DNA of 63,965 bases, counting the filler, from an uncultured bacterium (GTDB lineage Bacteria > CAZSTA01), in assembly GCA_964609495.1 (NCBI GenBank). It is 11 parts of 11 records of this genome, joined end to end, with 100 filler letters (N's around TTAATTAATTAA, not from the genome) between each part and the next. Parts side by side here need not be neighbours in the genome. Positions count along the whole stretch, not along the records: positions 6,247 to 12,377 come from CAZSTA010000213.1; 10 more parts are not named here. One strand, given 5' to 3'. Below, one piece after another: positions 6,248-18,582 of the stretch. The notes under the pieces were generated by a model. The model worked only from the letters and a program-made list of their open reading frames with translations. It ran no database searches and had not been told where the DNA came from. Within the stretch, counting starts at the first letter, position 1, and the number at the start of each line of letters is the position of its first letter. Made by a program: the position numbers and the translations under genes.

Positions 6248-6352
6248 ATAGCCATCTATAAGCTAGGATACTTAGAGGCCAGAAATAAAGAATTAGAGCA
6301 ATGGTCAAAGGAGCTTTTGATTAGGATTAAAGAACGGATGAAAAGCGGATAG
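6248..6352 (+). CDS. Possible 3' end of an unidentified gene
   Basis: Open from the contig start (IAIYKLGYLEARNKELEQW...KSG*), followed by a GGAGCT/AGCTCC hairpin. Confidence 0.3.
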   Translation: MAIYKLGYLEARNKELEQWSKELLIRIKERMKSG

Positions 6353-6585
6353 AGACTGGAGCTACTAAATTTTACAGCTCCAACCCCTAGTTGAGGAGAC
6401 GATTAAAGATGCGAAGTAATATCCTCTTCTCTAAGAAGGTTTTGACTAAAGGATGTTGAGAATGGTTATTGAGAGTTCTCCGAGAGGATATCTGACTCTG
6501 CCCAACACTAATATCTATTCTAAGCTCCTCCCAGAAAGCTTATCTTTATCTCCTTTCGAGGCTCAGATTTTTCCGAGAAAATGGC

Positions 6586-6614
6586 TTGACTGAATTAGAA
6601 ATTGAGGTTATAAT
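6586..6614 (+). promoter_or_regulatory. sigma70-type promoter of the glycan locus
   Basis: TTGACT-17 nt-TATAAT. Confidence 0.7.
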
Positions 6615-6676
6615 TAAGGCGTTAATTTAAACTCATTACTGCTGATATCACATTTTCAAAGAGAGGGAGAAGATTT

Positions 6677-7474
6677 ATGGAACAGGAACCAGGAATAAGA
6701 GATTATCTAGATATAATCTGGAGAAGAAGGATTATCATTATAGCAATATTTGTAATCTCGATCGCCGCCAGCTTTGCTATCAGTCTCACATTGTCTCCGG
6801 TATATCAAAGCGAAGCTATGGTGCGCTCTGCCCTGATCAATGGAGCACCAGTGGTAAGCACGGCAACTGCGCGCGAGAGTTTGTTGAGTTATAAGGTGAT
6901 GGACAAGCTCATCGAGGAACTTAATCTAGATACCAAAAATTATCAATTAAAAAATAATATAGATATACATCTACCAGCCGATATATTTATTATCGTAGCT
7001 AGAAGCAACGATCCTAAAGAGGCTAAAGCTATTTTAGATGCTCTAGTGGACGAGTATATCTTGGAATGGCAGGAACTATATAGTCAGAGGCTCGCAATCC
7101 TCCAAGATACTGTCCAAAATATGAAAAAGGATATGGAAGATCTGAGAAAGAGCATTGAATTAGAGGAAAAACTTGTAGATAAACTAAATACCTCCTCAAG
7201 TGCTGAAGAAGAAGCTAGGCTATCTCGACTATTAGAGGTGACGGATACTAATAGAAATCGATTAATACAGCTTGAAGCAGTGTATCAAAGTTTAAGGCAA
7301 CAAGTGGCCAATTCCCCAGATTTTGAAGTGATCTCTCCGGCCTTTGTTCCTGAGGATCCTATGAATAGATTTAAAAAATCGAATTTGCTTATAGCGGGAT
7401 TTTTCGGTTTATTTATTGGCGTAGGGTTAGCTTTCTTTGCCGAATACTGGAAGAGCACTGAGAAGAAGGGGTAG
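6677..7474 (+). CDS. Wzz/CapA-like polysaccharide chain-length determinant
   Basis: IRDYLDIIWRRR, N- and C-terminal TM helices, coiled coil, VISPAFVP, GLFIGVGLAF. Confidence 0.8.
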   Translation: MEQEPGIRDYLDIIWRRRIIIIAIFVISIAASFAISLTLSPVYQSEAMVRSALINGAPVVSTATARESLLSYKVMDKLIEELNLDTKNYQLKNNIDIHLPADIFIIVARSNDPKEAKAILDALVDEYILEWQELYSQRLAILQDTVQNMKKDMEDLRKSIELEEKLVDKLNTSSSAEEEARLSRLLEVTDTNRNRLIQLEAVYQSLRQQVANSPDFEVISPAFVPEDPMNRFKKSNLLIAGFFGLFIGVGLAFFAEYWKSTEKKG

Positions 7475-7511
7475 TCGGATTAATTTTTAAATTAGAAGGA
7501 GTAGATTAAAT

Positions 7512-8840
7512 ATGACTCTAGAGGGTAAGATAAGGAATAAAACAGCTCATCTGGGGATCGCAGGATTGGGATATGTAGGACTTCCCCTAGCCGTTGAATT
7601 CGGGAAAAGTGGTTTTTCAGTAGTTGGCGTAGATCCAGATGAACGGAAAGTAGAGATGATAAATAAAGGAGAAAGTTATGTAGTTGATATAGATAGCAAA
7701 GAGGTAAAATTTTTAAGAGATAAAGGAATATTAAGAGCGGATTCGGACTATAGTGAGGCTGAAGAGCTAGATGTAATCTTAATCGCAGTTCCAACTCCTT
7801 TGAGCGACACTAAGCAATTAGATCTATCCTGTGTGATCAGTGCTAGCCAAGATATAGCCAAATATCTTCATAAAGATCAGTTGATCATCTTGGAGAGCAC
7901 CACCTATCCTGGGACGACTGAAGAGGTAGTTCTTCCTATCCTTCAGAGATCTGGCCTTAAAGCTGGGGTTGATTTCCATCTAGCTTTTTCTCCCGAGAGG
8001 ATAGATCCGGGTAATAAGAAATTCACTTTGACTAACACCCCGAAGGTAGTGGGAGGATTGACTAAGAGATGTGGGGAATTAGCTCAACTTCTATATAGCC
8101 AGATTATAGAGAGAGTTGTCCCGGTATCATCCTTGAAGGTTGCCGAGATGTCTAAGTTGCTTGAGAATACCTTCCGGAGCGTAAATATCGCTTTAGCTAA
8201 TGAGATGGCTCTTCTTTGCGATCGGATGGGGATAGATATCTGGGAGGTAGTAGATGCCGCTTCAACTAAGCCCTTTGGCTTTATGCCCTTCTATCCTGGG
8301 CCGGGAGTAGGAGGTCATTGTATCCCAGTTGATCCCTATTACCTGCTATGGAAGGCTCGAGAATACAATTTCCATACCAGATTCATCGAGCTTGCTGAGG
8401 ATATAAATTCAAATATGCCCTTCTACGTGGTGTCCAAGATATCACAAGCTCTTAATTCAAAGGGTAAAAGTGTTAAAAAGGCTCGGATTTTAATCTTAGG
8501 AGCCACCTTTAAGAAAGATGTAAATGATCTTAGAAACTCCCCTTCGCTAAGGGTTATGGAATTACTCTATGAGCAGGGCGCTGAGGTTCTATACAATGAT
8601 CCCTACACCCCCAAACTTGAGATCAATAATGTCAAGATAGTAGGGGATAGAGGACCTCTGTGGCTGAAATCTACCGATCTAAACGAAGATATCCTGAGGG
8701 ATGTTGATTGCGTAGTGATCGCTGTTGATCATAGTCGCTATGATTTCGCTCAGATCGTTCAACATTCCAAATTAATCGTGGATACTAAGAACGCTACTAA
8801 AGAAGTTAAAAATAGTAGGGAGAAGATAATTAAGATATGA
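7512..8840 (+). CDS. Nucleotide-sugar 6-dehydrogenase (WbpA/WecC type)
   Basis: GLGYVGLP, ESTTYPG, FSPERIDPG, KLLENTFR, GGHCIP. Confidence 0.92.
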   Translation: MTLEGKIRNKTAHLGIAGLGYVGLPLAVEFGKSGFSVVGVDPDERKVEMINKGESYVVDIDSKEVKFLRDKGILRADSDYSEAEELDVILIAVPTPLSDTKQLDLSCVISASQDIAKYLHKDQLIILESTTYPGTTEEVVLPILQRSGLKAGVDFHLAFSPERIDPGNKKFTLTNTPKVVGGLTKRCGELAQLLYSQIIERVVPVSSLKVAEMSKLLENTFRSVNIALANEMALLCDRMGIDIWEVVDAASTKPFGFMPFYPGPGVGGHCIPVDPYYLLWKAREYNFHTRFIELAEDINSNMPFYVVSKISQALNSKGKSVKKARILILGATFKKDVNDLRNSPSLRVMELLYEQGAEVLYNDPYTPKLEINNVKIVGDRGPLWLKSTDLNEDILRDVDCVVIAVDHSRYDFAQIVQHSKLIVDTKNATKEVKNSREKIIKI

Positions 8841-10369
8841 AAGTGATGCTATTAGTTCCTCCGGGAGGATACTACGCGGAGCGATGGAGTAAAGGCTCGC
8901 TTATGCCTCCTCTAGGACTAGGATATTTAGCGGCAGTATTGGAGGAAAACGATATACCTGTCGAGGTAATAGATGCTTATGTCGAGGGGTATTCCCTGGA
9001 GGAATTGGGTGAGAGATTAGAGAAGAGCAAACCCGATATAGTAGGAATAACTATAACTACTGAGAACCGCTTTGAGGGATTCGATACCGCAGTTATGGTT
9101 AAGGAGACTTTGCCTCGAGCTATCGTAGTAGCAGGAGGCCCCCATATATCCTTAGCTGCCGAGGATACTTTGAGAGGCATACCTCAGATCGATCTAGCCG
9201 TTAGAGGAGAGGGAGAATACACCCTCTTAGATATAGTGAGAGCTATTGAGGCCGAGGGGGGAATCCTCCCCTCTACCTCTCCTATATTTAGGGGGAGGAA
9301 TCCTCCTCTCCACTCCTCCTATATTAAAGGAAGTGGATTCGAGAATATAGCTGGCCTTTCGTTCCGAAGAGGGAATGATATCATTCATAATCCTCCCCGA
9401 CCTCCCATTAGAGATTTAGATTCCATACCCTTTCCTGCCAGACACCTATTCCCCTGGGATAAATACAACTTCTACCTAGATGTTCCTGGAAAGGGAAGGT
9501 TGCCAGCGGCTAATATCATAACCAGCAGAGGTTGTCCGTTCTCCTGCAATTTCTGTGCTTCTAGCTCGATGTGGGGAAGAAGATATCGCACCGCTTCTCC
9601 AGAGAGGGTCATCGAGGAGATCGAGCTGTTGAAGAGGGATTATAAAGCCAAGGCGATCTGGTTCTTCGATGATACCTTTAACCTAGAGAAGAGGCGCACG
9701 GAGAAGATATGCGATCTAATGATCGAGCGTTCGCTAAATTTATACTGGTACTGTGAGATTCGCGTTGATATCCTGACCAAAGATCTACTAGCTAAGATGA
9801 AGGAGGCGGGATGTTACTGCGTAGCCTTCGGGGTAGAATCGGGATCGCAGAGGATATTAGATGAAGTTATCGGAAAGGGAATCAATATTGAACAGGCAAG
9901 AAGAACTGTTAAGTGGTGTCGGGAATTAGGCCTCTTAGCTAATCCCTTCTTTATCCTCAGCCATCCGAGTGAGACCATTAAGGAGGCTGAAAAGACGATG
10001 AGTCTAATAAGGGAGTTCTCCCCAAATAGTCAAGTCAGCCTCTCCTTATTACACGTCTATCCGGGCACTAAGCTGGAGGAGACCGCTAAGGAGAAGGGGA
10101 TCATCCCCCCTGGTTTCTCCTGGACTGACAGAAATATGTCCGGAGTGATAACCCTTCCCTCCTCTCAAGGAAATGTTCCCCTCTTTATCGACCAGTTGAC
10201 TTGGGAAGATATCAGTCATTACCTCTTCAAATGGGCTAGCTTGCAAAATTACTCCGTTCTTAAGCGAATACCCCAAGCCTTGAAGTCTATTCGCAATTGG
10301 GATGACTTTAGGCGCTATTGGACTATGTTCAGAGCTTATGTTAGACATAGACTTGGAGGCGTCGCTTGA
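8837..10369 (+). CDS. Cobalamin-binding radical SAM protein
   Basis: PPLGLGYLAA and GGPH B12-binding motifs, SRGCPFSCNFC, GVESGS; carries a 24-aa repeat-derived insert. Confidence 0.9.
   Translation: MKVMLLVPPGGYYAERWSKGSLMPPLGLGYLAAVLEENDIPVEVIDAYVEGYSLEELGERLEKSKPDIVGITITTENRFEGFDTAVMVKETLPRAIVVAGGPHISLAAEDTLRGIPQIDLAVRGEGEYTLLDIVRAIEAEGGILPSTSPIFRGRNPPLHSSYIKGSGFENIAGLSFRRGNDIIHNPPRPPIRDLDSIPFPARHLFPWDKYNFYLDVPGKGRLPAANIITSRGCPFSCNFCASSSMWGRRYRTASPERVIEEIELLKRDYKAKAIWFFDDTFNLEKRRTEKICDLMIERSLNLYWYCEIRVDILTKDLLAKMKEAGCYCVAFGVESGSQRILDEVIGKGINIEQARRTVKWCRELGLLANPFFILSHPSETIKEAEKTMSLIREFSPNSQVSLSLLHVYPGTKLEETAKEKGIIPPGFSWTDRNMSGVITLPSSQGNVPLFIDQLTWEDISHYLFKWASLQNYSVLKRIPQALKSIRNWDDFRRYWTMFRAYVRHRLGGVA
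9254..9325 (+). repeat. Two tandem B repeats (35 nt each) in frame within the radical SAM CDS
   Basis: GAGGGGGGAATCCTCCCCTCTACCTCTCCTATATT (9254-9288) and GGGGGAGGAATCCTCCTCTCCACTCCTCCTATATT (9291-9325). Confidence 0.85.
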
Positions 10370-11256
10370 AATCTAGTTGGCAACTTCAGATATTCAATAG
10401 ATCACTCAAGAAGAGGCAGAAATTTGAGGTTGTTACGAGTCTTATGAACTCCACCGAAGATAAAGGGGAAGGAATCCTCCCCTCTATAAAGGAAACTTTT
10501 GCTTCAAACAAAACTCAAGGTTCAAAAGTTTCCTTTATCCCTTCTATATTCGGGAAGTGCTTGGATATCGGATGTGCTACTGGAGTTCTAAGCTATTATC
10601 TGAGACATAAGGGCGGCTATTGGATCAGCGCAGATATAGACGAGGAGAATCTATCGGAGACCAAGAGTCTGGTGAAGGAAAATGTAATTCGGATAGATGA
10701 GAGGAATTTGAGCTTTAAGGATGAGATATTCGATTGTGTTGTAGTTTTGGACTTTCTGGAGCATATCGAGGATGACGATGCTCTCCTCTCCGAGATCAGG
10801 CGAGTGTTGAAGCCGAAGGGCAAAGTCTATATAAGCGTCCCACGTATAGAGGGCTTACTCCTAATAAATAAACTAAAGAGACTTATCGGCATAACCCAGG
10901 AATACTATGGTCATAAGCGCCCCGGATATAGCTTTGCGGGACTACGAGATAAGCTTAAAAAGAACGGCTTTGAGATCTTAGCTCAAAGAACCTTCTCCAA
11001 GTTCTTCACCGAAGCGATAGAGCTGGTTATAAATTCGATATATATCCTTCTAGGCAAGAGAAAAGGAGAGGCCTTTAGACGAGAAGGACAACATATCTCT
11101 ATATCCTCAGCCTCCGAGTTTGAAACTCATAAAGCCTCATTTAAGCTATATTCTCTGTTATATCCTCTCTTGGAACTAATCTCCAAATTAGATAAGCTCC
11201 TATTCTTTGCTCCCGGCTATGTGCTAGTGATCAAAGCGCGTAAAGATGGAAATTGA
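10366..11256 (+). CDS. Class I SAM-dependent methyltransferase
   Basis: CLDIGCATG motif I, FDCVVVLDFLEHI, RRVLKPKG; TTG start overlapping the upstream stop. Confidence 0.85.
   Translation: MKSSWQLQIFNRSLKKRQKFEVVTSLMNSTEDKGEGILPSIKETFASNKTQGSKVSFIPSIFGKCLDIGCATGVLSYYLRHKGGYWISADIDEENLSETKSLVKENVIRIDERNLSFKDEIFDCVVVLDFLEHIEDDDALLSEIRRVLKPKGKVYISVPRIEGLLLINKLKRLIGITQEYYGHKRPGYSFAGLRDKLKKNGFEILAQRTFSKFFTEAIELVINSIYILLGKRKGEAFRREGQHISISSASEFETHKASFKLYSLLYPLLELISKLDKLLFFAPGYVLVIKARKDGN
10465..10550 (+). repeat. B repeat interrupted by an A hairpin (10486-10538), in frame within the methyltransferase
   Basis: GGGGAAGGAATCCTCCCCTCT[A element]ATCCCTTCTATATT; A arms ATAAAGGAAACTTTTG/CAAAAGTTTCCTTTAT form a perfect 16-bp IR. 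Confidence 0.88.
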
Positions 11257-11273
11257 GGGAGGAATCCCCTTCG
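11255..11273 (+). repeat. Truncated B repeat at a gene junction
   Basis: GAGGGAGGAATCCCCTTCG overlaps the TGA stop and provides GGAGG before ATG 11274. Confidence 0.55.
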
Positions 11274-12257
11274 ATGAGAATCTTAGTTACTGGTGGAACA
11301 GGATTTATCGGAAGCCATCTAGTAGAATCCCTTCTCAAAGAAGGGCATCAAGTTAAAGCTCTTATAAGGCGAACTAGCAACACCGAATACCTGGACAACT
11401 TAAACATCGAGTTAGTATATGGGGATATAACCGACGAAACCTCGTTAAGACCAGCGGTAAAAGATGTCCAAATCGTCTATCACCTAGCTAGCCTCTTAAA
11501 CCCGCTCAGAGTCCCAGATGATAGATATCGAGAGGTAAACGTCAAAGGGACTGAGAATCTCCTCGAAGCTTGCCTATCTGCCGATAAGATCGAGCGCTTC
11601 ATCTACTGTAGCAGTGTAGCAGTATATGGAAAATTAGAGCATATACCCACTAGCGAAGAATGTTTGTGTTCGCCAGATAATATTTATGGTTCGACTAAAT
11701 ATGAAGGGGAGAAGCTTGCTTTAGAGTTCTATCATCAACATGGCTTGCCAGTGGCGGTAGCTCAACCCGCCTGGGTTTATGGACCTCGAGATGATAAGCT
11801 TCTCAAACTCTGTCGAGCGATCATAAATAATTCCTTCGTGATGATCGGAAAAGGGGATACCCTTCGTCATCCAGTTTATGTGACGGATGTGGTTCAGGGG
11901 TTAAAATTGTGTGCCAAAAGGGAGTCTGCGATAGGGGAGGTGTATATTATAGCTGGCAAGGAAGCGCTCCCTATTAGAAAGATAATTGAGACCCTCGCTG
12001 ATATATTGGGGAAGAAAATTCCTCCTTTCTATATCCCGGCGTTTCTTGCGGAAGCGATCGCTTGGGTTTTCGAAAGGACTTTGCCCAAGATAGGAGTAGA
12101 ACCTATCCTATCCCAAAGGCGATTGGAATTTTTCACCAAAAGGCAAGCTTTCTCCATAGCTAAGGCTCAATTGAAATTGGGGTATTCCCCTCAGATAGAT
12201 TTAAAAGACGGCTTAGAGAGAACAGTCGAGTGGTACCGCGAGGAAGGATGTATCTAA
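11274..12257 (+). CDS. NAD-dependent epimerase/dehydratase (extended SDR)
   Basis: MRILVTGGTGFIG, YHLAS, YGSTK; ATG 11274 preferred over TTG 11253. Confidence 0.9.
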   Translation: MRILVTGGTGFIGSHLVESLLKEGHQVKALIRRTSNTEYLDNLNIELVYGDITDETSLRPAVKDVQIVYHLASLLNPLRVPDDRYREVNVKGTENLLEACLSADKIERFIYCSSVAVYGKLEHIPTSEECLCSPDNIYGSTKYEGEKLALEFYHQHGLPVAVAQPAWVYGPRDDKLLKLCRAIINNSFVMIGKGDTLRHPVYVTDVVQGLKLCAKRESAIGEVYIIAGKEALPIRKIIETLADILGKKIPPFYIPAFLAEAIAWVFERTLPKIGVEPILSQRRLEFFTKRQAFSIAKAQLKLGYSPQIDLKDGLERTVEWYREEGCI

Positions 12258-12312
12258 ATTCTAGATGGAGTTTAGATGTATAAATATTTAAAATTTAAAG
12301 GAGGCATGAAGA

Positions 12313-12377
12313 ATGAGAAGATTAGCTGTATCACTGGTGATCTTAGGGATGATCTTCTTAGTAGTAGCAGTAGGCTG
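12313..12377 (+). CDS. 5' end of a probable lipoprotein
   Basis: AAGGAGG SD, MRRLAVSLVILGMIFLVVAVG then TG cut by linker (lipobox if Cys). Confidence 0.55.
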
Positions 12378-12477
12378 NNNNNNNNNNNNNNNNNNNNNNN
12401 NNNNNNNNNNNNNNNNNNNNNTTAATTAATTAANNNNNNNNNNNNNNNNNNNNNNNNNNNNNNNNNNNNNNNNNNNN
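12378..12477. other. Artificial contig linker
   Basis: Same 100-nt linker. Confidence 0.98.
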
Positions 12478-12482
12478 AAGCT

Positions 12483-12517
12483 TATCTCAATGTTCCCTCT
12501 CCCCTTGCGGGAGAGGG
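12483..12517 (+). repeat. C repeat (BoxC-like) at contig start
   Basis: TATCTCAATGTTCCCTCTCCCCTTGCGGGAGAGGG, homologous to 43109-43143. Confidence 0.7.
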
Positions 12518-12590
12518 TAATAAGAAGTATAGACTAGTTATATCTTGAACTCACCTTTTATATTATGTAAACTTAAAGGAGATAATACCG

Positions 12591-13499
12591 ATGCTTAAAA
12601 TAAAGGGCTTGATATCCTTGATTCTAATCACTTTGGCTCTGATCAGTTGCGAAGGGGGAGTTTCCGTTGATGATTGGGGAGAGGTAGGCTTAAATTCCGT
12701 CTATATGTTAAGCTCCAATGAAGGTTGGGCGGTAGGAACTGGTGGTAGGATCTTACGTTATAATGGAAGTGCTTGGAATGAGGTTGAGAGTCGAGTTACT
12801 GACAACCTTTGGGAGGTGTGGATGACGAGTCCGAATGAAGGCTGGGCTATAGGAGGTTGGCCTAGTAGTGGGGTGATCTTGCGCTATCAGGATGGATTAT
12901 GGAATAAGGTATCGAGTCCTGCCGAAGGTTATCTCCTCTCATTATATATGCTCAACCCCAACGAGGGCTGGGCGGTAGGGAAGGATGGACTTATACTATA
13001 TTGGGATGGGGAGAGCTGGAGTAAGGAGAACAGTCCTGTCTCCTACGATCTTACCTCGATCTATATGCTCAGTTCCTCTGAAGGTTGGGCAGTTGGTAAG
13101 GGTGGTATTATCTATTATGATGGAAGCAGGTGGAATAAGTACGTGGGGTCTTCTGCTTTCCTGAACGATATCTTTATGTTAAGTAGTGATAATGGTTGGG
13201 CAGTTGGAGTCGGAGGGGTGATTCTTCACTACAACGGTAGTGGATGGAATGATGTGACCAGCCCTTCCCTCTATGATCTTAATTCGATCTATATGCTCAA
13301 TGCTACCGAGGGTTGGATGGTGGGAGAAGGAGGGATGATCTTCTATTATGATGGGGTGAATTGGTCGGAGAGAATTTCCCCTACCGATAAGAGCTTATTG
13401 GATGTATATATGATAAACAAGAACGATGGTTGGGCAGTAGGACGAGACGATGTTATACTCCATTATGATGGGACGAAGTGGGAATTGGAAAGTGGATAA
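12591..13499 (+). CDS. Lipoprotein with seven beta-propeller-type repeats (YCF48/BNR-like)
   Basis: LISC lipobox; repeated L.S.YM....GWAVG..G.IL.YDG..W units of about 39 aa. Confidence 0.8.
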   Translation: MLKIKGLISLILITLALISCEGGVSVDDWGEVGLNSVYMLSSNEGWAVGTGGRILRYNGSAWNEVESRVTDNLWEVWMTSPNEGWAIGGWPSSGVILRYQDGLWNKVSSPAEGYLLSLYMLNPNEGWAVGKDGLILYWDGESWSKENSPVSYDLTSIYMLSSSEGWAVGKGGIIYYDGSRWNKYVGSSAFLNDIFMLSSDNGWAVGVGGVILHYNGSGWNDVTSPSLYDLNSIYMLNATEGWMVGEGGMIFYYDGVNWSERISPTDKSLLDVYMINKNDGWAVGRDDVILHYDGTKWELESG

Positions 13500-13547
13500 A
13501 GAAAACTTTTGCTTCCAATAGAGTTCAAGGTAAAAAAGTTTTCTTTA
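13497..13547 (+). repeat. A hairpin
   Basis: TAAAGAAAACTTTT...AAAAGTTTTCTTTA, perfect 14-bp IR; its first three bases are the upstream stop codon. Confidence 0.85.
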
Positions 13548-13629
13548 AATAGAGAATGAGGATCGAGGGACTCTAGCGAGTTCTCTCTCCTATATCTATT
13601 TTTAAATCAACGAAAGGTGGTGCAGATTT

Positions 13630-15780
13630 ATGTTCAGCCAAAAAGGATCGATATTGCTTCTAATAGGGTTGATTTGCTACCTCATAGGCGCTTGTCTTCC
13701 TACTTTTGCCGAGGAGGAAGAGATTGTGCCTAAGGCAGCGGAGGAGAAAATCCTTGCGGAAGCCAAAAAGGTGCGTTTAACGGAGAAAGCTCAAGAGAAG
13801 CTTTTAAGGAATGGTTTTGTAGTTGTTCCAGAGGATAAATATAAGGATATATATGAGCTTTACAAGAATTGTAAGGAGAAAAATATACCGATATTTGTGA
13901 CGACAGATTCCATCCTTCATACCTCGCATATCCTCTTCGATTATGCGCTTCGTATCTTGGAGATCGAGAAATTATATGAAGCCGCGATCCTTCTCACCGA
14001 AGAGCTGTTTAAGGCCTCCATAGAGCAGTATGAGAAGTTCGATGATGAGAAGTTGAAGGAGGCCGCTAGGCTAAACGTTGCCTTCTTCGGAGTGGCTCGA
14101 AAACTCCTTGATTCAGAGGCTGATATACCTGATTATGTGAAGAAGGAGGTTGAAGCAGACCTTGTCTTCATCGAGAATCACAAGGGATTCGAATTCTCCT
14201 ATACTCTCGATAATAAAGAGGATTTCAGCCAATATGTGCCTAGAGGTCACTACACGAGAAACGATAAATTTAAGCGATATTTCAAGATGATGATGTGGTA
14301 TGGGCGGAGGATGTTCCGCGTTGACGAGAAAGACCCCTTTGGGGCTGGTAGCCCTCCCGATCATCCTCCGATAGAGAGTGGTTGGTTAAATAAAGAGGTC
14401 TATCCCCCCGAGGGGATCGCTGAGACCAGAAGAGCGCTTCTGATCTTGGGAATTTTGAAGGGAACTCAAGTGAAGGGAGAGATGGCGATCGATGTCTGGG
14501 GGAGATTATATGATCCCATCACTCTATTCGTGGGGGAATCGGATGATCTGAACGTCAATGATTATCTGGAGATAGCCAAGGAGATATACGGAGGAGTCCC
14601 CTCAGCCGAGGATCTCGTGGCGGATGATAAGATAGTCCAATTCGCCAAATCAGCGGCAGATAAGAGAGCGCCTAAGATCGACTCGACTGGAATGGGAAGG
14701 AAGGGATTCTCCTTACTTGGTCAGAGATTCACCCCCGATGCTTATATCCTCCAGAATCTAGTCTATCACGATGGTTCATTGCTCTATACTGGTAGGGATG
14801 TTGCTCCCTTCCCCTTCACCTATGTTATGACTATGGGGGGGCCAATTAGAGGTTTTCCGAGAGGGCTGGACGTTATGGCGGTCCTCGGCTCTGATCCGGC
14901 TTATGATATCCTGAAGGATCTAGGGGATACGCAATACAGTGATTATGAGAAGGAGTTAGCCGCCCTCAAACAGGAGTTCGGAAGCGACGAGGTTGACATC
15001 TGGGGAAGGACCCTCTATTACAGTTGGATAAGTTGCTTGAGACCGTTATTGGATAAGAATGGGGACGAGTATCCAGCATTTATGAGAACGAGGGCTTGGC
15101 GAGTTAAGGAGTTGACGACTGCTTTAGCCTCCTGGGCTGAGCTTAGGCACGATACGATCCTCTATGCTAAGCAGAGCTATACAGGGATGTTAAGGGCTAT
15201 ATCCCTCCCTCCACAGATGACCAAAGGATATGTAGCACCTAATCCTACTTTCTGCGAGCGAGTCGCAGATATGATGAAGCAGATGCGAGAGGGACTGAAG
15301 GAAAGGGGAATCTTACCAGAGGAGTTAGAGGATAAGATGGCCCAACTGGAGGATTTAGCAACGACCTTTAAGGTCATCTCCGATAAAGAGTTGAAGGGCA
15401 AATCCTTAACTGAGGAGGAGTACCGGAGGATTTGGGAGATAGGTGATGAATTGGAGAGTATTATCTCCTTCTCCGATGAGATCAAAGCTAAAGTAAGTTC
15501 AGAAGCGGATACTAGAATGGCTATAATCGCTGATGTCCACACCGAGAATAACACCAAGCAGGTGTTAGAGGAGGGAGTGGGAGATCCCTTCTCGCTCTAC
15601 GCCGTAGTAGAGATCGAGGGAGGGTATCAGTTGTTAAAAGGAGCGATTTTCTCCTATTATGAGTTCAAGCATCCTATGAAGGATAGACTGACCGATGAGA
15701 AGTGGCAGAAGATGTTGGAGGAGGAGAAAGCTCCCGAGCTACCCGAATGGACCACGATATATATGGAAAATGGAGAATAG
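13630..15780 (+). CDS. DUF3160 domain-containing secreted protein
   Basis: EDFSQYVPRGHYT, WAELRHDTILYAKQSY, IADVHT, FSYYEF, RLTDEKW; signal peptide. Confidence 0.85.
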   Translation: MFSQKGSILLLIGLICYLIGACLPTFAEEEEIVPKAAEEKILAEAKKVRLTEKAQEKLLRNGFVVVPEDKYKDIYELYKNCKEKNIPIFVTTDSILHTSHILFDYALRILEIEKLYEAAILLTEELFKASIEQYEKFDDEKLKEAARLNVAFFGVARKLLDSEADIPDYVKKEVEADLVFIENHKGFEFSYTLDNKEDFSQYVPRGHYTRNDKFKRYFKMMMWYGRRMFRVDEKDPFGAGSPPDHPPIESGWLNKEVYPPEGIAETRRALLILGILKGTQVKGEMAIDVWGRLYDPITLFVGESDDLNVNDYLEIAKEIYGGVPSAEDLVADDKIVQFAKSAADKRAPKIDSTGMGRKGFSLLGQRFTPDAYILQNLVYHDGSLLYTGRDVAPFPFTYVMTMGGPIRGFPRGLDVMAVLGSDPAYDILKDLGDTQYSDYEKELAALKQEFGSDEVDIWGRTLYYSWISCLRPLLDKNGDEYPAFMRTRAWRVKELTTALASWAELRHDTILYAKQSYTGMLRAISLPPQMTKGYVAPNPTFCERVADMMKQMREGLKERGILPEELEDKMAQLEDLATTFKVISDKELKGKSLTEEEYRRIWEIGDELESIISFSDEIKAKVSSEADTRMAIIADVHTENNTKQVLEEGVGDPFSLYAVVEIEGGYQLLKGAIFSYYEFKHPMKDRLTDEKWQKMLEEEKAPELPEWTTIYMENGE

Positions 15781-15788
15781 GATGTAAT

Positions 15789-15946
15789 TTCCCCCTCACC
15801 CTTAAAAGGTAACTTTTGCTTCAAATAGGACTCAAGGTTAAAAAGTTACCTTTTATCCCTCTCCCACGGGGGAAGAGGGGATTCTTAAGACCTGCGATCC
15901 CTTTTATTTCCCCCTCCCTTGACGGGAGGGGTTAGGGGAGGGTGAT
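15789..15946. repeat. Inverted pair of C repeats, the first interrupted by an A hairpin (15803-15855)
   Basis: CCCCCTCACCCT[TAAAAGGTAACTTTT...AAAAGTTACCTTTT]ATCCCTCTCCCACGGGGG and CCCCTCCCTTGACGGGAGGGGTTAGGGGAGGGTGA. Confidence 0.82.
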
Positions 15947-15997
15947 TTGAACAACTCTTCCCAACCTCCGATCTCAAGATGAGAGGGTGAGAGTATA

Positions 15998-16417
15998 GTG
16001 ACTCTTAATTCGCATCTTCCGAAGATCTCGCTATTCATCCTTTTGCTTGTCTTATTGACTATCTTGAATAGTTGTTCGTTCTCTCCAGTTAAAGCGGAAG
16101 AGAAAGCTCAAGTGGGAATGGTTGAGATCGGTATTGCCTCCTGGTATGGAGCTGAATTTCACAGAACGAGAACCTCTAACGGCGAGATATACGATATGTA
16201 TCAACTGACCGCGGCTCATCGTTCCTTCCCCTTCGGGACTATAGTGCGAGTCACTAATTTAGGCAATGGGAAAATCGTTATGGTTCGGATAAATAATCGA
16301 GGGCCTTTCATCAAGAGGCGAATAATAGATCTATCCTACGCCGCGGCGGTTCAGCTCGATATGGTGGAGCAGGGGATCGCCGAGGTGGGGATAGAGGTAG
16401 TTCAGACGAAGGATTGA
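15998..16417 (+). CDS. rlpA: RlpA-family (DPBB) lytic transglycosylase-like lipoprotein, no SPOR domain
   Basis: GIASWYG, LTAAHRSFPFGT.VRVTNL, RIIDLSYAAA; LNSC lipobox. Confidence 0.85.
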   Translation: MTLNSHLPKISLFILLLVLLTILNSCSFSPVKAEEKAQVGMVEIGIASWYGAEFHRTRTSNGEIYDMYQLTAAHRSFPFGTIVRVTNLGNGKIVMVRINNRGPFIKRRIIDLSYAAAVQLDMVEQGIAEVGIEVVQTKD

Positions 16418-16437
16418 GGGCAATCAAGGGGGAGTAG

Positions 16438-18582
16438 ATGTCCGATTCGAGTGATATAAGAGGGATGGAGGGAGAAATCCCTTCCTCTATAGCATGGTAT
16501 TCCCTCTCAATAGAGAAGATCATCGAAAAATTTAATACCGATGTAGAAAATGGTCTGTCATCTCCAGAAGCTTCCTCTCGATTGAGGAGGTATGGTCCTA
16601 ATAAGTTAAGAGAGGTTAAGGGAGTCCCTACCTGGATTATACTTCTTAACCAATTTAAGAGCTTGATCGTGGTGCTTCTTCTGATAGCCACGGGGATAGC
16701 CCTCTTCTTGGGAGATAATATCGAGGCGCTTGCTGTATTTATGGTTATAATCTTGAACGCGGCTTTTGGCTTCTTCACGGAGTGGAGAGCCGAGAAATCT
16801 ATGCAGTCCTTGAAAAATTTGGTCGTTCCTAAAGCCAGGGTGGTCCGAGATGGTGATGTTGATGAGATTCTCGCCACAGACCTAGTTCCAGGTGATATTA
16901 TCCTCCTCGAGGCGGGAGATCGAGTCCCAGCCGACGGCCGATTGGTGGAGGCAGTGGATCTATCCCTACAGGAGGCGGCCTTGACCGGGGAATCGCTCAG
17001 CGTTCGCAAGGATCCCGAGGTGGTTGTTGGGGAGAATACCCCCTTGGGGGACCGAGTCAATATGGTATATATGAGTATGATCGTCACTGAAGGACGAGGG
17101 AAGGCTATTGTAGTCAAGACTGGAATGAAGACCGAGGTGGGGCAGATAAGTGGGATGATCGAAGGTGCTGGGGAGGAGATGACCCCTTTAGAACGCAGAT
17201 TAGAGAGGTTGGGGCGCTACCTCGTGATCTTATGCTTTGGGATCTCAGTCATCATAATTATAGCTGGAATCCTTCGTGGACTGCCCTCTATAGACATGCT
17301 CAGAACTGGCTTGAGCTTAGCGATAGCTGCCGTGCCTGAGGGTTTGCCAGTGGTGGCAACGATTACTCTGGCGATAGGGATGCGTCGGATGGCTCGTCGC
17401 AACGCTATAATCCGCAGACTCCCTGCGGTGGAGACGCTGGGATGCACCACTACTATATGTACCGATAAGACTGGGACGCTCACCGAAAATGAGCTTATGG
17501 TCCGAGAGATATATCTTCATCCTGATACGATTAAAGTCACTGGGGAGGGCTATGTTCCTGAAGGGACCTTCGATCTCGAGGGAAAGAAGGCGAGGAAGGA
17601 TGAGCGCTTGAGGATGGCGCTCAAGATAGCGGCTCTCTGTAATAACGCCGCTCTTGATGAGGAGGTCGAGACTGGTGGAGTCTCGTGGGATGTGATCGGG
17701 GATCCGACGGAGGGCGCTCTCTTGGTAGCCGCGGAGAAGATCGGCTATCAACCGAAGGAGTTGAGGAAGGAGTATCCTCGCTTGGACGAGCTTCCCTTTG
17801 ATTCCGATAAGAAGATTATGGCTACCCTCCACGAGGTTAGGGATGGAGAAAATCCTTCTTCCTCTACACATCGGCTATTAGGGGTTAAAGGAGCTTTAGA
17901 GGTCATATTGGATAGTTGTGATTATGTATATAAAGGAACAGAAATAATTCTGCTTACTGACGAGGATAGGGAAGCGATCTCCGTCCAAGCTGATGAGATG
18001 GCAAAGAGGGCTTTGCGTGTTCTTACCGTGGCTTATAAAGAGCTTCCGGTCTCTCAAGATAGTGTAGAGGATAACGATATACAAGGTCTAACTTTCTTGG
18101 GGTTAATGGGGATGACCGATTCACCTCGACCAGAGGCGGAGGGAGCTATAGAGGAGTGCCAAACTGCTGGGATCAAAGTGATTATGATCACTGGCGATAA
18201 CAAGATTACCGCTGAGGTTATAGCTAAGGAATTGGGTCTAGCCTCTGATGATTCGCTTATCTTGGACTACTCTGAGATCGATTTCAAAGATAGGGAAGAG
18301 CTAAAGGAGATAGTAAAGAAGGTTACCGTTTATTCTCGGGTCTCTCCAGCCGATAAGCTCAATATCGTTGATGCTCTTCAGGAGAATGGTGAGATCGTAG
18401 CGATGACTGGGGATGGAGTTAACGATGCGCCAGCTCTGAAGACCGCGGATATAGGGATCTCGATGGGGCAGACAGGAACGGATGTTGCGCAGGAAGCCTC
18501 CGATATGGTGTTGGCGGATGATAACTTCGCAACGATTGTGGCCGCGGTTGAGGAGGGAAGGGTAATCTATGCAAATATCTAG
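16438..18582 (+). CDS. Cation-transporting P-type ATPase (P2A, Ca2+-type), C-terminal TM region missing
   Basis: LTGES, PEGL, DKTGT, GDPTE, TGDN, GDGVND; ends in TAG 7 nt before the contig end. Confidence 0.88.
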   Translation: MSDSSDIRGMEGEIPSSIAWYSLSIEKIIEKFNTDVENGLSSPEASSRLRRYGPNKLREVKGVPTWIILLNQFKSLIVVLLLIATGIALFLGDNIEALAVFMVIILNAAFGFFTEWRAEKSMQSLKNLVVPKARVVRDGDVDEILATDLVPGDIILLEAGDRVPADGRLVEAVDLSLQEAALTGESLSVRKDPEVVVGENTPLGDRVNMVYMSMIVTEGRGKAIVVKTGMKTEVGQISGMIEGAGEEMTPLERRLERLGRYLVILCFGISVIIIIAGILRGLPSIDMLRTGLSLAIAAVPEGLPVVATITLAIGMRRMARRNAIIRRLPAVETLGCTTTICTDKTGTLTENELMVREIYLHPDTIKVTGEGYVPEGTFDLEGKKARKDERLRMALKIAALCNNAALDEEVETGGVSWDVIGDPTEGALLVAAEKIGYQPKELRKEYPRLDELPFDSDKKIMATLHEVRDGENPSSSTHRLLGVKGALEVILDSCDYVYKGTEIILLTDEDREAISVQADEMAKRALRVLTVAYKELPVSQDSVEDNDIQGLTFLGLMGMTDSPRPEAEGAIEECQTAGIKVIMITGDNKITAEVIAKELGLASDDSLILDYSEIDFKDREELKEIVKKVTVYSRVSPADKLNIVDALQENGEIVAMTGDGVNDAPALKTADIGISMGQTGTDVAQEASDMVLADDNFATIVAAVEEGRVIYANI
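16453..16487 (-). repeat. Diverged B repeat in frame in the ATPase N-terminus
   Basis: Reverse complement GAGGAAGGGATTTCTCCCTCCATCCCTCTTATATC matches the B consensus at 24/35; all mismatches are transitions. Confidence 0.65.

Follow-up and report, generated by a model that had tools for sequence, protein, structure and literature searches.

Can two unrelated short repeats, one lodged within the other, be carried in frame by a bacterial enzyme that is still under selection, and if so, by which steps did they arrive? The question is raised by a methyltransferase gene of an uncultured bacterium (assembly GCA_964609495.1; 3.78 Mb in 349 contigs, 44% GC, 99.45% complete), which lies in the window, meaning here the whole stretch of 63,965 nucleotides, filler included, that was analysed; it consists of contigs of about 6 kb with N spacers between them. 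An earlier note on this DNA had described a repeat, A, inserted into a second repeat, B, both in frame within the gene. The gene belongs to a run on contig C213 that encodes Wzz, a UDP-sugar dehydrogenase, a B12-binding radical SAM protein, the methyltransferase and an NAD-dependent epimerase and that, judging from these neighbours, looks like a surface-polysaccharide cluster. The 40 relatives available for comparison share only the domain rank with the host. The coordinates of the features are collected in Table 1.

Table 1. Features of the methyltransferase locus and its surroundings (positions along the window)
Feature	Position	Strand	Basis or remark
Tandem pair of B copies adding about 25 aa, in frame, to the B12-binding radical SAM protein	9254..9325	+	Homolog alignment
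GGAGG, likely ribosome-binding site, 6 nt before TTG	10355..10359	+	Sequence; function inferred
Class I SAM-dependent methyltransferase ORF, 296 aa	10366..11256	+	Methyltransf_11 (Pfam), E 1.7e-18
Whole insert, 90 nt / 30 codons, residues 34-63 (alignment register)	10465..10554	+	Absent from homologs; predicted disordered
Left part of repeat B (G tract, short loop and C tract, reaching into the 4-nt central loop)	10465..10486	+	B consensus
Repeat A, 51-nt hairpin, 15-bp perfect arms, GGAAAC subfamily	10487..10537	+	Pairing, genomic copies
Right part of repeat B, comprising the second C tract and an AT-rich tail	10538..10550	+	Exact consensus in L014
Truncated B overlapping the methyltransferase stop, with GGAGG before the epimerase ATG at 11274	11255..11272	+	Sequence; function inferred

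The methyltransferase frame opens with a TTG at 10366 that overlaps the stop of the upstream radical SAM gene. A start downstream of the insert was ruled out, since 114 of 119 homologs reach the same N-terminal region; this reach, together with the GGAGG that precedes the TTG, supports the view that the composite is coding. An AlphaFold model of the protein was obtained with a pTM of 0.80 from a 23-sequence alignment, in which pLDDT falls below 50 only at residues 32-59 and 235-244, and Foldseek matched this model to class I methyltransferases, including TleD and RebM. Through Pfam, the AlphaFold topology and Foldseek, a Rossmann-like fold with motif I after strand beta1 was recovered, and the added peptide is predicted to be disordered, beside an intact class I methyltransferase fold. 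The protein agrees with its homologs at 52 of the 54 columns that are conserved in at least 90% of them, and both deviations are also present in P0002, a relative without repeat A. A promoter and terminator scan of 10200-10800 returned nothing convincing, and an Rfam scan of 6256-18500 gave four weak matches, all far below the gathering scores.

The size of the insert was established by counting the residues between two anchors, of which the methyltransferase has 49, while its homologs have 19 in 103 of 118 cases, 18 in five, 20 in nine and 28 in one (P0002). The insert thus amounts to 30 amino acids (90 nt), of which 51 nt belong to A and 39 nt to B, junction bases counted in; the gap before motif I that had been anticipated is present, and it is 30 rather than about 29 residues long. 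The removal of 51 nt (10486-10536, for which 10485-10535 and 10487-10537 are equivalent registers) does rebuild a 35-nt B, as had been claimed, with 32 of 35 positions matching the consensus of 41 genomic B copies, and the same deletion at the orthologous locus L014 yields 35 of 35. The A hairpin at 10487-10537 has an RNA z-score of about -5, and none of 200 shuffles was as good. The predicted peptide is read in frame within the ORF, as described in the earlier note, and its position before motif I holds in the sequence; the insert ends, however, at the N-terminal end of strand beta1 in the AlphaFold model. In the established topology of class I methyltransferases the SAM-binding loop lies at the opposite end of that strand, away from the insert. 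Other parts of the first description had to be narrowed. A TA is indeed present at the junction, but it can be read either as a TA duplication or as the blunt insertion of a palindrome with T...A ends, and no duplication length is common to most copies. The GGAAAC variant is in the minority within the window (two arms against nine with AGGTAAC), but genome-wide it occurs on 160 arms, beside 88 with AGGTAAC, 69 with TGGTAAC and 70 with GGGAAC, so that its presence on both arms is an inherited subfamily trait and not a local two-arm change. An assembly artefact was ruled out by the presence of the composite in the independent records P0121, P0122 and P0123/L014.

A comparison of alleles indicates how the gene has fared with its insert. 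Of nine loci found, two are metagenome contigs closely related to the window. L014 (= P0123) has the same A-in-B composite, P0121 is a second intact allele of 296 aa that also carries it, and the more distant L013 (dS 0.28) retains only the left half of B, as 27 nt in frame (+9 aa), and lacks A. The window and L014 differ by 21.5 synonymous and 9.5 non-synonymous changes over 248 codons (dN/dS 0.11, Fisher p 3e-8), with 12 synonymous and 4 non-synonymous changes on the window branch alone. Since both alleles bear the composite, the low ratio indicates that purifying selection acted after the insertion. P0122, P0123/L014 and run X8 have all lost 1 nt near 10782-10793, some 230 nt downstream of the composite, and their protein stops at 147 aa; the frameshifted branch shows 8 synonymous against 2 non-synonymous changes, so the loss there is recent. 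The claim that two successive insertions were tolerated in one coding sequence is therefore sustained by the selection data, but not as a universal rule, because one related composite-bearing lineage is frameshifted. No joint that skips A or B at this site was present in the contigs of 8 of the 24 runs, from which rare variants are dropped, and no contig piece bridged both junctions in these 8 runs, a result that is uninformative for rare alleles. Among the metagenome loci and run contigs compared, no allele with an intact B and without A was seen. As a separate observation, one low-depth contig of run X8 shows two indels in the radical SAM gene of a relative (window positions 9489 and 9504), +1 and -1, which are separated by 15 nt and together restore the frame.

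Both repeats belong to dispersed families. In the own assembly, nhmmer gave 212 hits for A and 56 for B at E <= 0.01, and at the mismatch limits used no A-like or B-like match was found in a block-shuffled genome. With its terminal inverted repeats (15-bp arms), its multiple copies and no encoded transposase, A fits in these respects the description of a miniature inverted-repeat transposable element (MITE). The families differ in their relation to genes: taking stop-to-stop ORFs of at least 200 aa, which are not curated genes, 27 of 52 near-full B copies lie well inside long ORFs, compared with 14 of 141 for A, none of 164 short-pattern copies of a further repeat, C1, none of 57 for another, C2, and 67% of random positions. 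A sits inside B, C1, C2 or another A in 68 of 166 copies, with no such nesting in shuffles. Each arm subfamily of A favours particular insertion positions in the host repeats, and one long A subfamily occurs in a pair of host repeats that are distinct but have a CCC-TCT motif in common. About 20 of the 44 A insertions in B, C1 and C2 fall in the loop between mirror tracts, the others at a stem or edge; a targeting of A purely to triplex-motif loops is only partly supported.

The nesting also runs in the opposite direction, as B-like repeats lie inside A at five loci (C28, C45, C47, C73 and C224). Three of these carry a further A inside, with up to four layers at C224, and at C28 and C45 an apparent 3-nt duplication was seen by eye at the B-like insert. 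Among the loci L029 (C73), L032 (C7), L036, L037 and L042, A alone was observed within a DnaA-type ATPase domain and between HypF domains, and in the same set three to four B copies each occur in large secreted or membrane proteins, for example a TamB-domain protein and an M1-peptidase protein. Closer to the methyltransferase, the two tandem B copies of the radical SAM gene have a spacing of 37 nt and are each read in another frame, within an insert of about 75 nt (43 residues where 36 of 60 homologs have 18), and the second copy may have restored a frame that was broken by the first. Just after the methyltransferase stop, L013 has a longer B remnant and about 145 extra nt. The L013 epimerase carries, at a site corresponding to about window position 11508, a reverse A in frame with a net gain of 42 nt and 8-9 nt lost, while the window site is empty; the two form a filled and empty pair that shows an imprecise A junction.

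The arrangement seen in the methyltransferase is found elsewhere in the genome. A lies inside B in 13 of 166 near-full A copies (14 if a 1-nt junction loss is allowed), all cuts falling at B positions 18-23, around the 4-nt central loop, and three trials with shuffled flanks gave no such nesting. Three junction classes were distinguished: that of the methyltransferase, which is unique; a reverse class of four copies with a 51-nt A; and a forward class of 6-8 copies with a longer A of 52-53 nt. Composites with a 51-nt A lie in long ORFs in four of five cases, against none of eight with 52-53 nt (p 0.007, for copies that are not independent). The four ORFs encode the methyltransferase, the beta subunit of glycyl-tRNA synthetase (GlyS-beta), a RACo-type protein and an unassigned frame of 524 codons, and the genome accordingly holds at least four composites within ORFs, that of the methyltransferase included. 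The composites on C223 and C52 were not counted as coding, since they are situated upstream of the domains concerned, EF-G and GMP synthase.

GlyS-beta, an essential aminoacyl-tRNA synthetase subunit, offers the clearest parallel. Its gene is present in a single copy in the assembly and contains a reverse-class composite (L025, G000:C42:6549-6640), with 45 residues between anchors where all 60 homologs aligned, of 119 listed, have 15, that is, a gain of 30 aa. This composite stems from an event separate from that in the methyltransferase. The GlyS and RACo composites share an identical A (0/49 differences), while their B copies differ at 5 of 35 positions (p 0.01), which suggests later, separate A insertions; such a contrast of young A and old B was found in one of six reverse-class pairs, the other five having 3-10 of 35 differences in B and 4-6 of 49 in A. 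The RACo composite is part of a larger insert of about 77 residues in comparison with 3ZYY. For GlyS-beta and the radical SAM protein, no relative above 55% identity was present among the best 120 listed.

In view of these results, it is quite probable that the two-layer insert of 30 codons formed in two steps in a gene kept under purifying selection, and very likely that B preceded A at this locus, as judged from sequence comparison: the junction occurs once in the 3.78-Mb assembly, the A copies most similar to this one, with 2-4 differences, lie in other targets, and B alone makes up 13 whole codons. The B-first order that had been proposed is therefore the best reading for the methyltransferase, but the five loci with B-like repeats inside A show that it is not an order of the families. 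L013 alone is indecisive here, since it can be explained by B and a 12-nt deletion or, equally shortly, by a 63-nt deletion from the composite. The latter would apply if the composite had been built elsewhere and had entered the gene once as a 90-nt unit, with 63 nt lost later in L013. Such a history is improbable, yet it has some points in its favour: identical junctions do recur elsewhere (12 A-in-C1, 6-8 forward and four reverse A-in-B copies), some composites, among them the 12 A-in-C1 copies that share one junction, appear to have spread as units, an intact allele with B only was not seen, and one deletion is needed for L013 under either history. It is opposed by the single occurrence of the methyltransferase junction, by a B that keeps the frame on its own, by the long A subfamily in two CCC-TCT host repeats, which favours repeated targeting, and by the GlyS and RACo composites, in which an identical A lies in B copies that have diverged.

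Two further explanations are less probable still. If the gene were a decaying pseudogene, the open frame would be incidental, and the frameshifted composite-bearing alleles in three records, as well as the accessory role suggested by the polysaccharide-cluster neighbours, are consistent with this; it is nevertheless very improbable, given that the dN/dS of 0.11 accrued after the insertion, that changes on the frameshifted branch are still 8 synonymous to 2 non-synonymous, that the conserved columns are intact and that a composite of the same size lies in single-copy GlyS-beta. The removal of the hairpin at the DNA or RNA level, by excision or splicing, which would give a protein without the insert, is scarcely credible. 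A strong hairpin is predicted in the transcript, but no insert-skipping joint was present in the contigs of the 8 DNA runs, and the finding that only composites with 51-nt inserts occur within ORFs implies that these inserts are translated.

For the preferred two-step history, the following course is proposed. The 39-nt B would have landed first, at a predicted surface loop between a helix and a strand, and the 51-nt A hairpin would later have entered the central loop of B. Neither step would have broken the frame, as both lengths, 39 and 51, are divisible by three and no stop occurs in the frame that is read. For the protein, the additional peptide is probably near-neutral baggage. Those B copies that were already tolerated in protein loops would then have served as preferred landing sites for A, and selection would retain only frame-preserving junctions, by which the same extension of 13 and 17 residues would recur, GlyS-beta included. 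A itself would move as a non-autonomous hairpin, through an enzyme acting in trans that recognises short target motifs and leaves no fixed target duplication. Successive jumps of tiny repeats are thus likely to enlarge working enzymes in this bacterium.

The nature of the mover was approached by family searches of the own assembly (PF01797, PF04480, PF01541, PF13358, PF01548, PF00078 and PF12762), in which no convincing intact mobilising enzyme was found across the seven families and the 349 contigs of a fragmented assembly. PF13358, PF01548, PF00078 and PF12762 gave no match. The sole PF01797 match is a partial Y1 domain in an 80-aa frame on a 1.7-kb contig (L022:1227-1640; G000:C343), followed near the contig end by a full HEARO RNA (157 bits) and situated beside a gene that appears ParA-like by eye. 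The assembly yielded no RAYT-like gene with A or B at its flanks; a stand-alone DUF559 protein is present, with no A, B or C repeat in the 1.2 kb of its locus that was inspected, and a GIY-YIG domain was matched in a 613-aa frame. Outside this genome, the strict A pattern had no match in genome contigs, and viral contigs gave none for the A arms or for B. A pattern of the A arms only gave 14 loci with unrelated interiors, for example in Pseudanabaena and Pyrinomonadaceae. The Pseudanabaena loci (L044-L046, L052, L055) contain a longer palindromic repeat whose inner arms equal the A arms and switch between GGAAAC and GGGAAC, around a different interior.

The leading candidate for the mover of A, with a chance not far short of even, is a HUH/Y1 (RAYT-like) single-strand transposase acting in trans, which was placed ahead of enzyme-free repair and of an IS630-type MITE, in that order. 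HUH/Y1 enzymes act on hairpin substrates at motif-specific targets without target duplication, and it is on these three features that the preference is based. RAYT enzymes cleave at a CT dinucleotide; at the A junctions this dinucleotide is enriched only about 2-fold. It is unlikely, though worth keeping in mind for this step, that no dedicated enzyme is involved and that both repeats are propagated by template switching or break repair where the DNA forms hairpins and triplexes. In keeping with such a route, none of the seven families searched yielded an enzyme in the assembly, B conforms to a pattern for intrastrand triplexes, with stems as long as 8 nt, the junctions are imprecise, and the available text of PMC4666352 describes instability around triplex motifs with no link to mobile elements. 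The subfamily-specific targets and the near-constant length of 51 nt are, however, easier to explain with an enzyme, and fragmented metagenome assemblies, like the one in 349 contigs used here, often lose multi-copy transposases. Somewhat less likely again, as far as the enzyme step is concerned, is that A is a TA-duplicating MITE of the IS630/mariner type (49 nt plus TA). Its perfect terminal inverted repeats would fit, as would the matching end dinucleotides in the methyltransferase junction and in 25 of 64 GGAAAC/GGGAAC copies (14 expected, with many offsets tried) and the TA ends with target duplication that the available text of PMC2229807 gives for most bacterial MITEs. The remaining 39 of 64 copies lack matching end dinucleotides, junctions in known host repeats range from a 1-nt loss to a 1-3-nt gain, and neither PF13358 nor PF12762 was matched in the assembly, all of which speak against this type.

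More speculatively, and unlikely in this full form, A may be a gene-free mobile hairpin whose arm variants set the target and which homes to triplex-capable repeats, with B as a coding triplex repeat that seeds tolerated loops. The two would act as a two-tier, frame-preserving ratchet, adding 13 and then 17 residues even to essential enzymes, via an undescribed enzyme or DNA structure alone.

Taken alone, the methyltransferase locus is an ordinary tolerated insertion, and its weight lies in the recurrence and in the targeting. On the sequence evidence, its composite is real, coding and tolerated through most of its history, and it is an instance of a genome-wide pattern. One site provides a natural series (empty, B remnant, B with A, and B with A followed by a frameshift), which illustrates how selfish micro-repeats may add loops to proteins, with a second instance in GlyS-beta. 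The fixed positions of A in B, C1, C2 and A, in turn, supply defined donor and target substrates, by which the mover of BoxC-like and RPE-like repeats becomes testable once a candidate enzyme is found.

Among the known systems, the palindromic repeats of Rickettsia (RPE) come closest. According to the available text of two sources, these occur in frame in conserved Rickettsia proteins (Ogata 2000/2002, Abergel 2006, via PMC2229807, PMC10969869), an RPE-bearing guanylate kinase is active (PMC2229807, PMC10969869), and their length is 105-146 bp (PMC2229807). The present repeats resemble them as dispersed palindromes that lie in frame in conserved genes, are probably near-neutral and have no known cognate transposase, and they too occupy sites that are empty in homologs (methyltransferase +30, GlyS-beta +30 and radical SAM about +25 aa). 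They differ in size, with units of 39 and 51 nt against 105-146 bp, in the stacking of two unrelated families at one site, where the second targets the first, and in their host, an environmental bacterium rather than Rickettsia. In-frame palindromic repeats are also described, in the available text of the same sources, for ERIC, Correia elements and an archaeal repeat (PMC2229807, PMC10969869), the coding palindromes of Methanocaldococcus jannaschii among the examples (Suyama 2005, via PMC2229807). With bacterial MITEs (Correia, 107 bp; ERIC/RU-1) and the M. jannaschii palindromes, A shares terminal inverted repeats, a hairpin transcript, the lack of transposase coding and ORF fusions that are limited by open frames. 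A is, however, half the usual minimum size of a MITE, lacks a fixed target duplication and enters other repeats at targets that depend on its subfamily, and B has no terminal inverted repeats.

REP/REPIN elements with their RAYT enzymes are alike in being short, high-copy hairpins, in the insertion at a fixed position of another repeat and in the absence of a fixed target duplication. A RAYT gene is flanked by its own repeats. Insertion sequences can likewise target repeats, as IS1111 inserts into QMITE2 according to the available text of PMC10969869; in contrast to insertion sequences that target REP, A has only 51 nt and carries no gene. B, in turn, is reminiscent of BoxC/PIT/TMECO as presented in the available text of PMC4666352, as it combines a pair of mirror purine tracts with a complementary pyrimidine tract, joined by short loops. 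In a simplified test, its consensus conforms to the triplex stem and loop rules (mirror purine stems of 6-8 nt and a complementary stem), while the TMECO pattern (C-tract, loop, G-tract, 3-nt loop, G-tract, with 9-nt stems) matches B on neither strand, since the tract order differs. It is repeat C1 that gives 155 matches to this pattern in the genome, and 17 C1 copies carry an A. The available text of the same source places TMECO always in intergenic positions in E. coli MG1655 (Holder 2015, PMC4666352), unlike B, which has 27 of 52 copies inside long ORFs; B looks like a repeat that is capable of triplex formation and mostly tolerated. A search that covered literature outside subscription brought up no account of a bacterial gene in which two different repeat families are nested in frame. 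In-frame palindromic repeats as such are already known, and the stacking of two families of less than 60 nt in one reading frame looks like a new variant of them.
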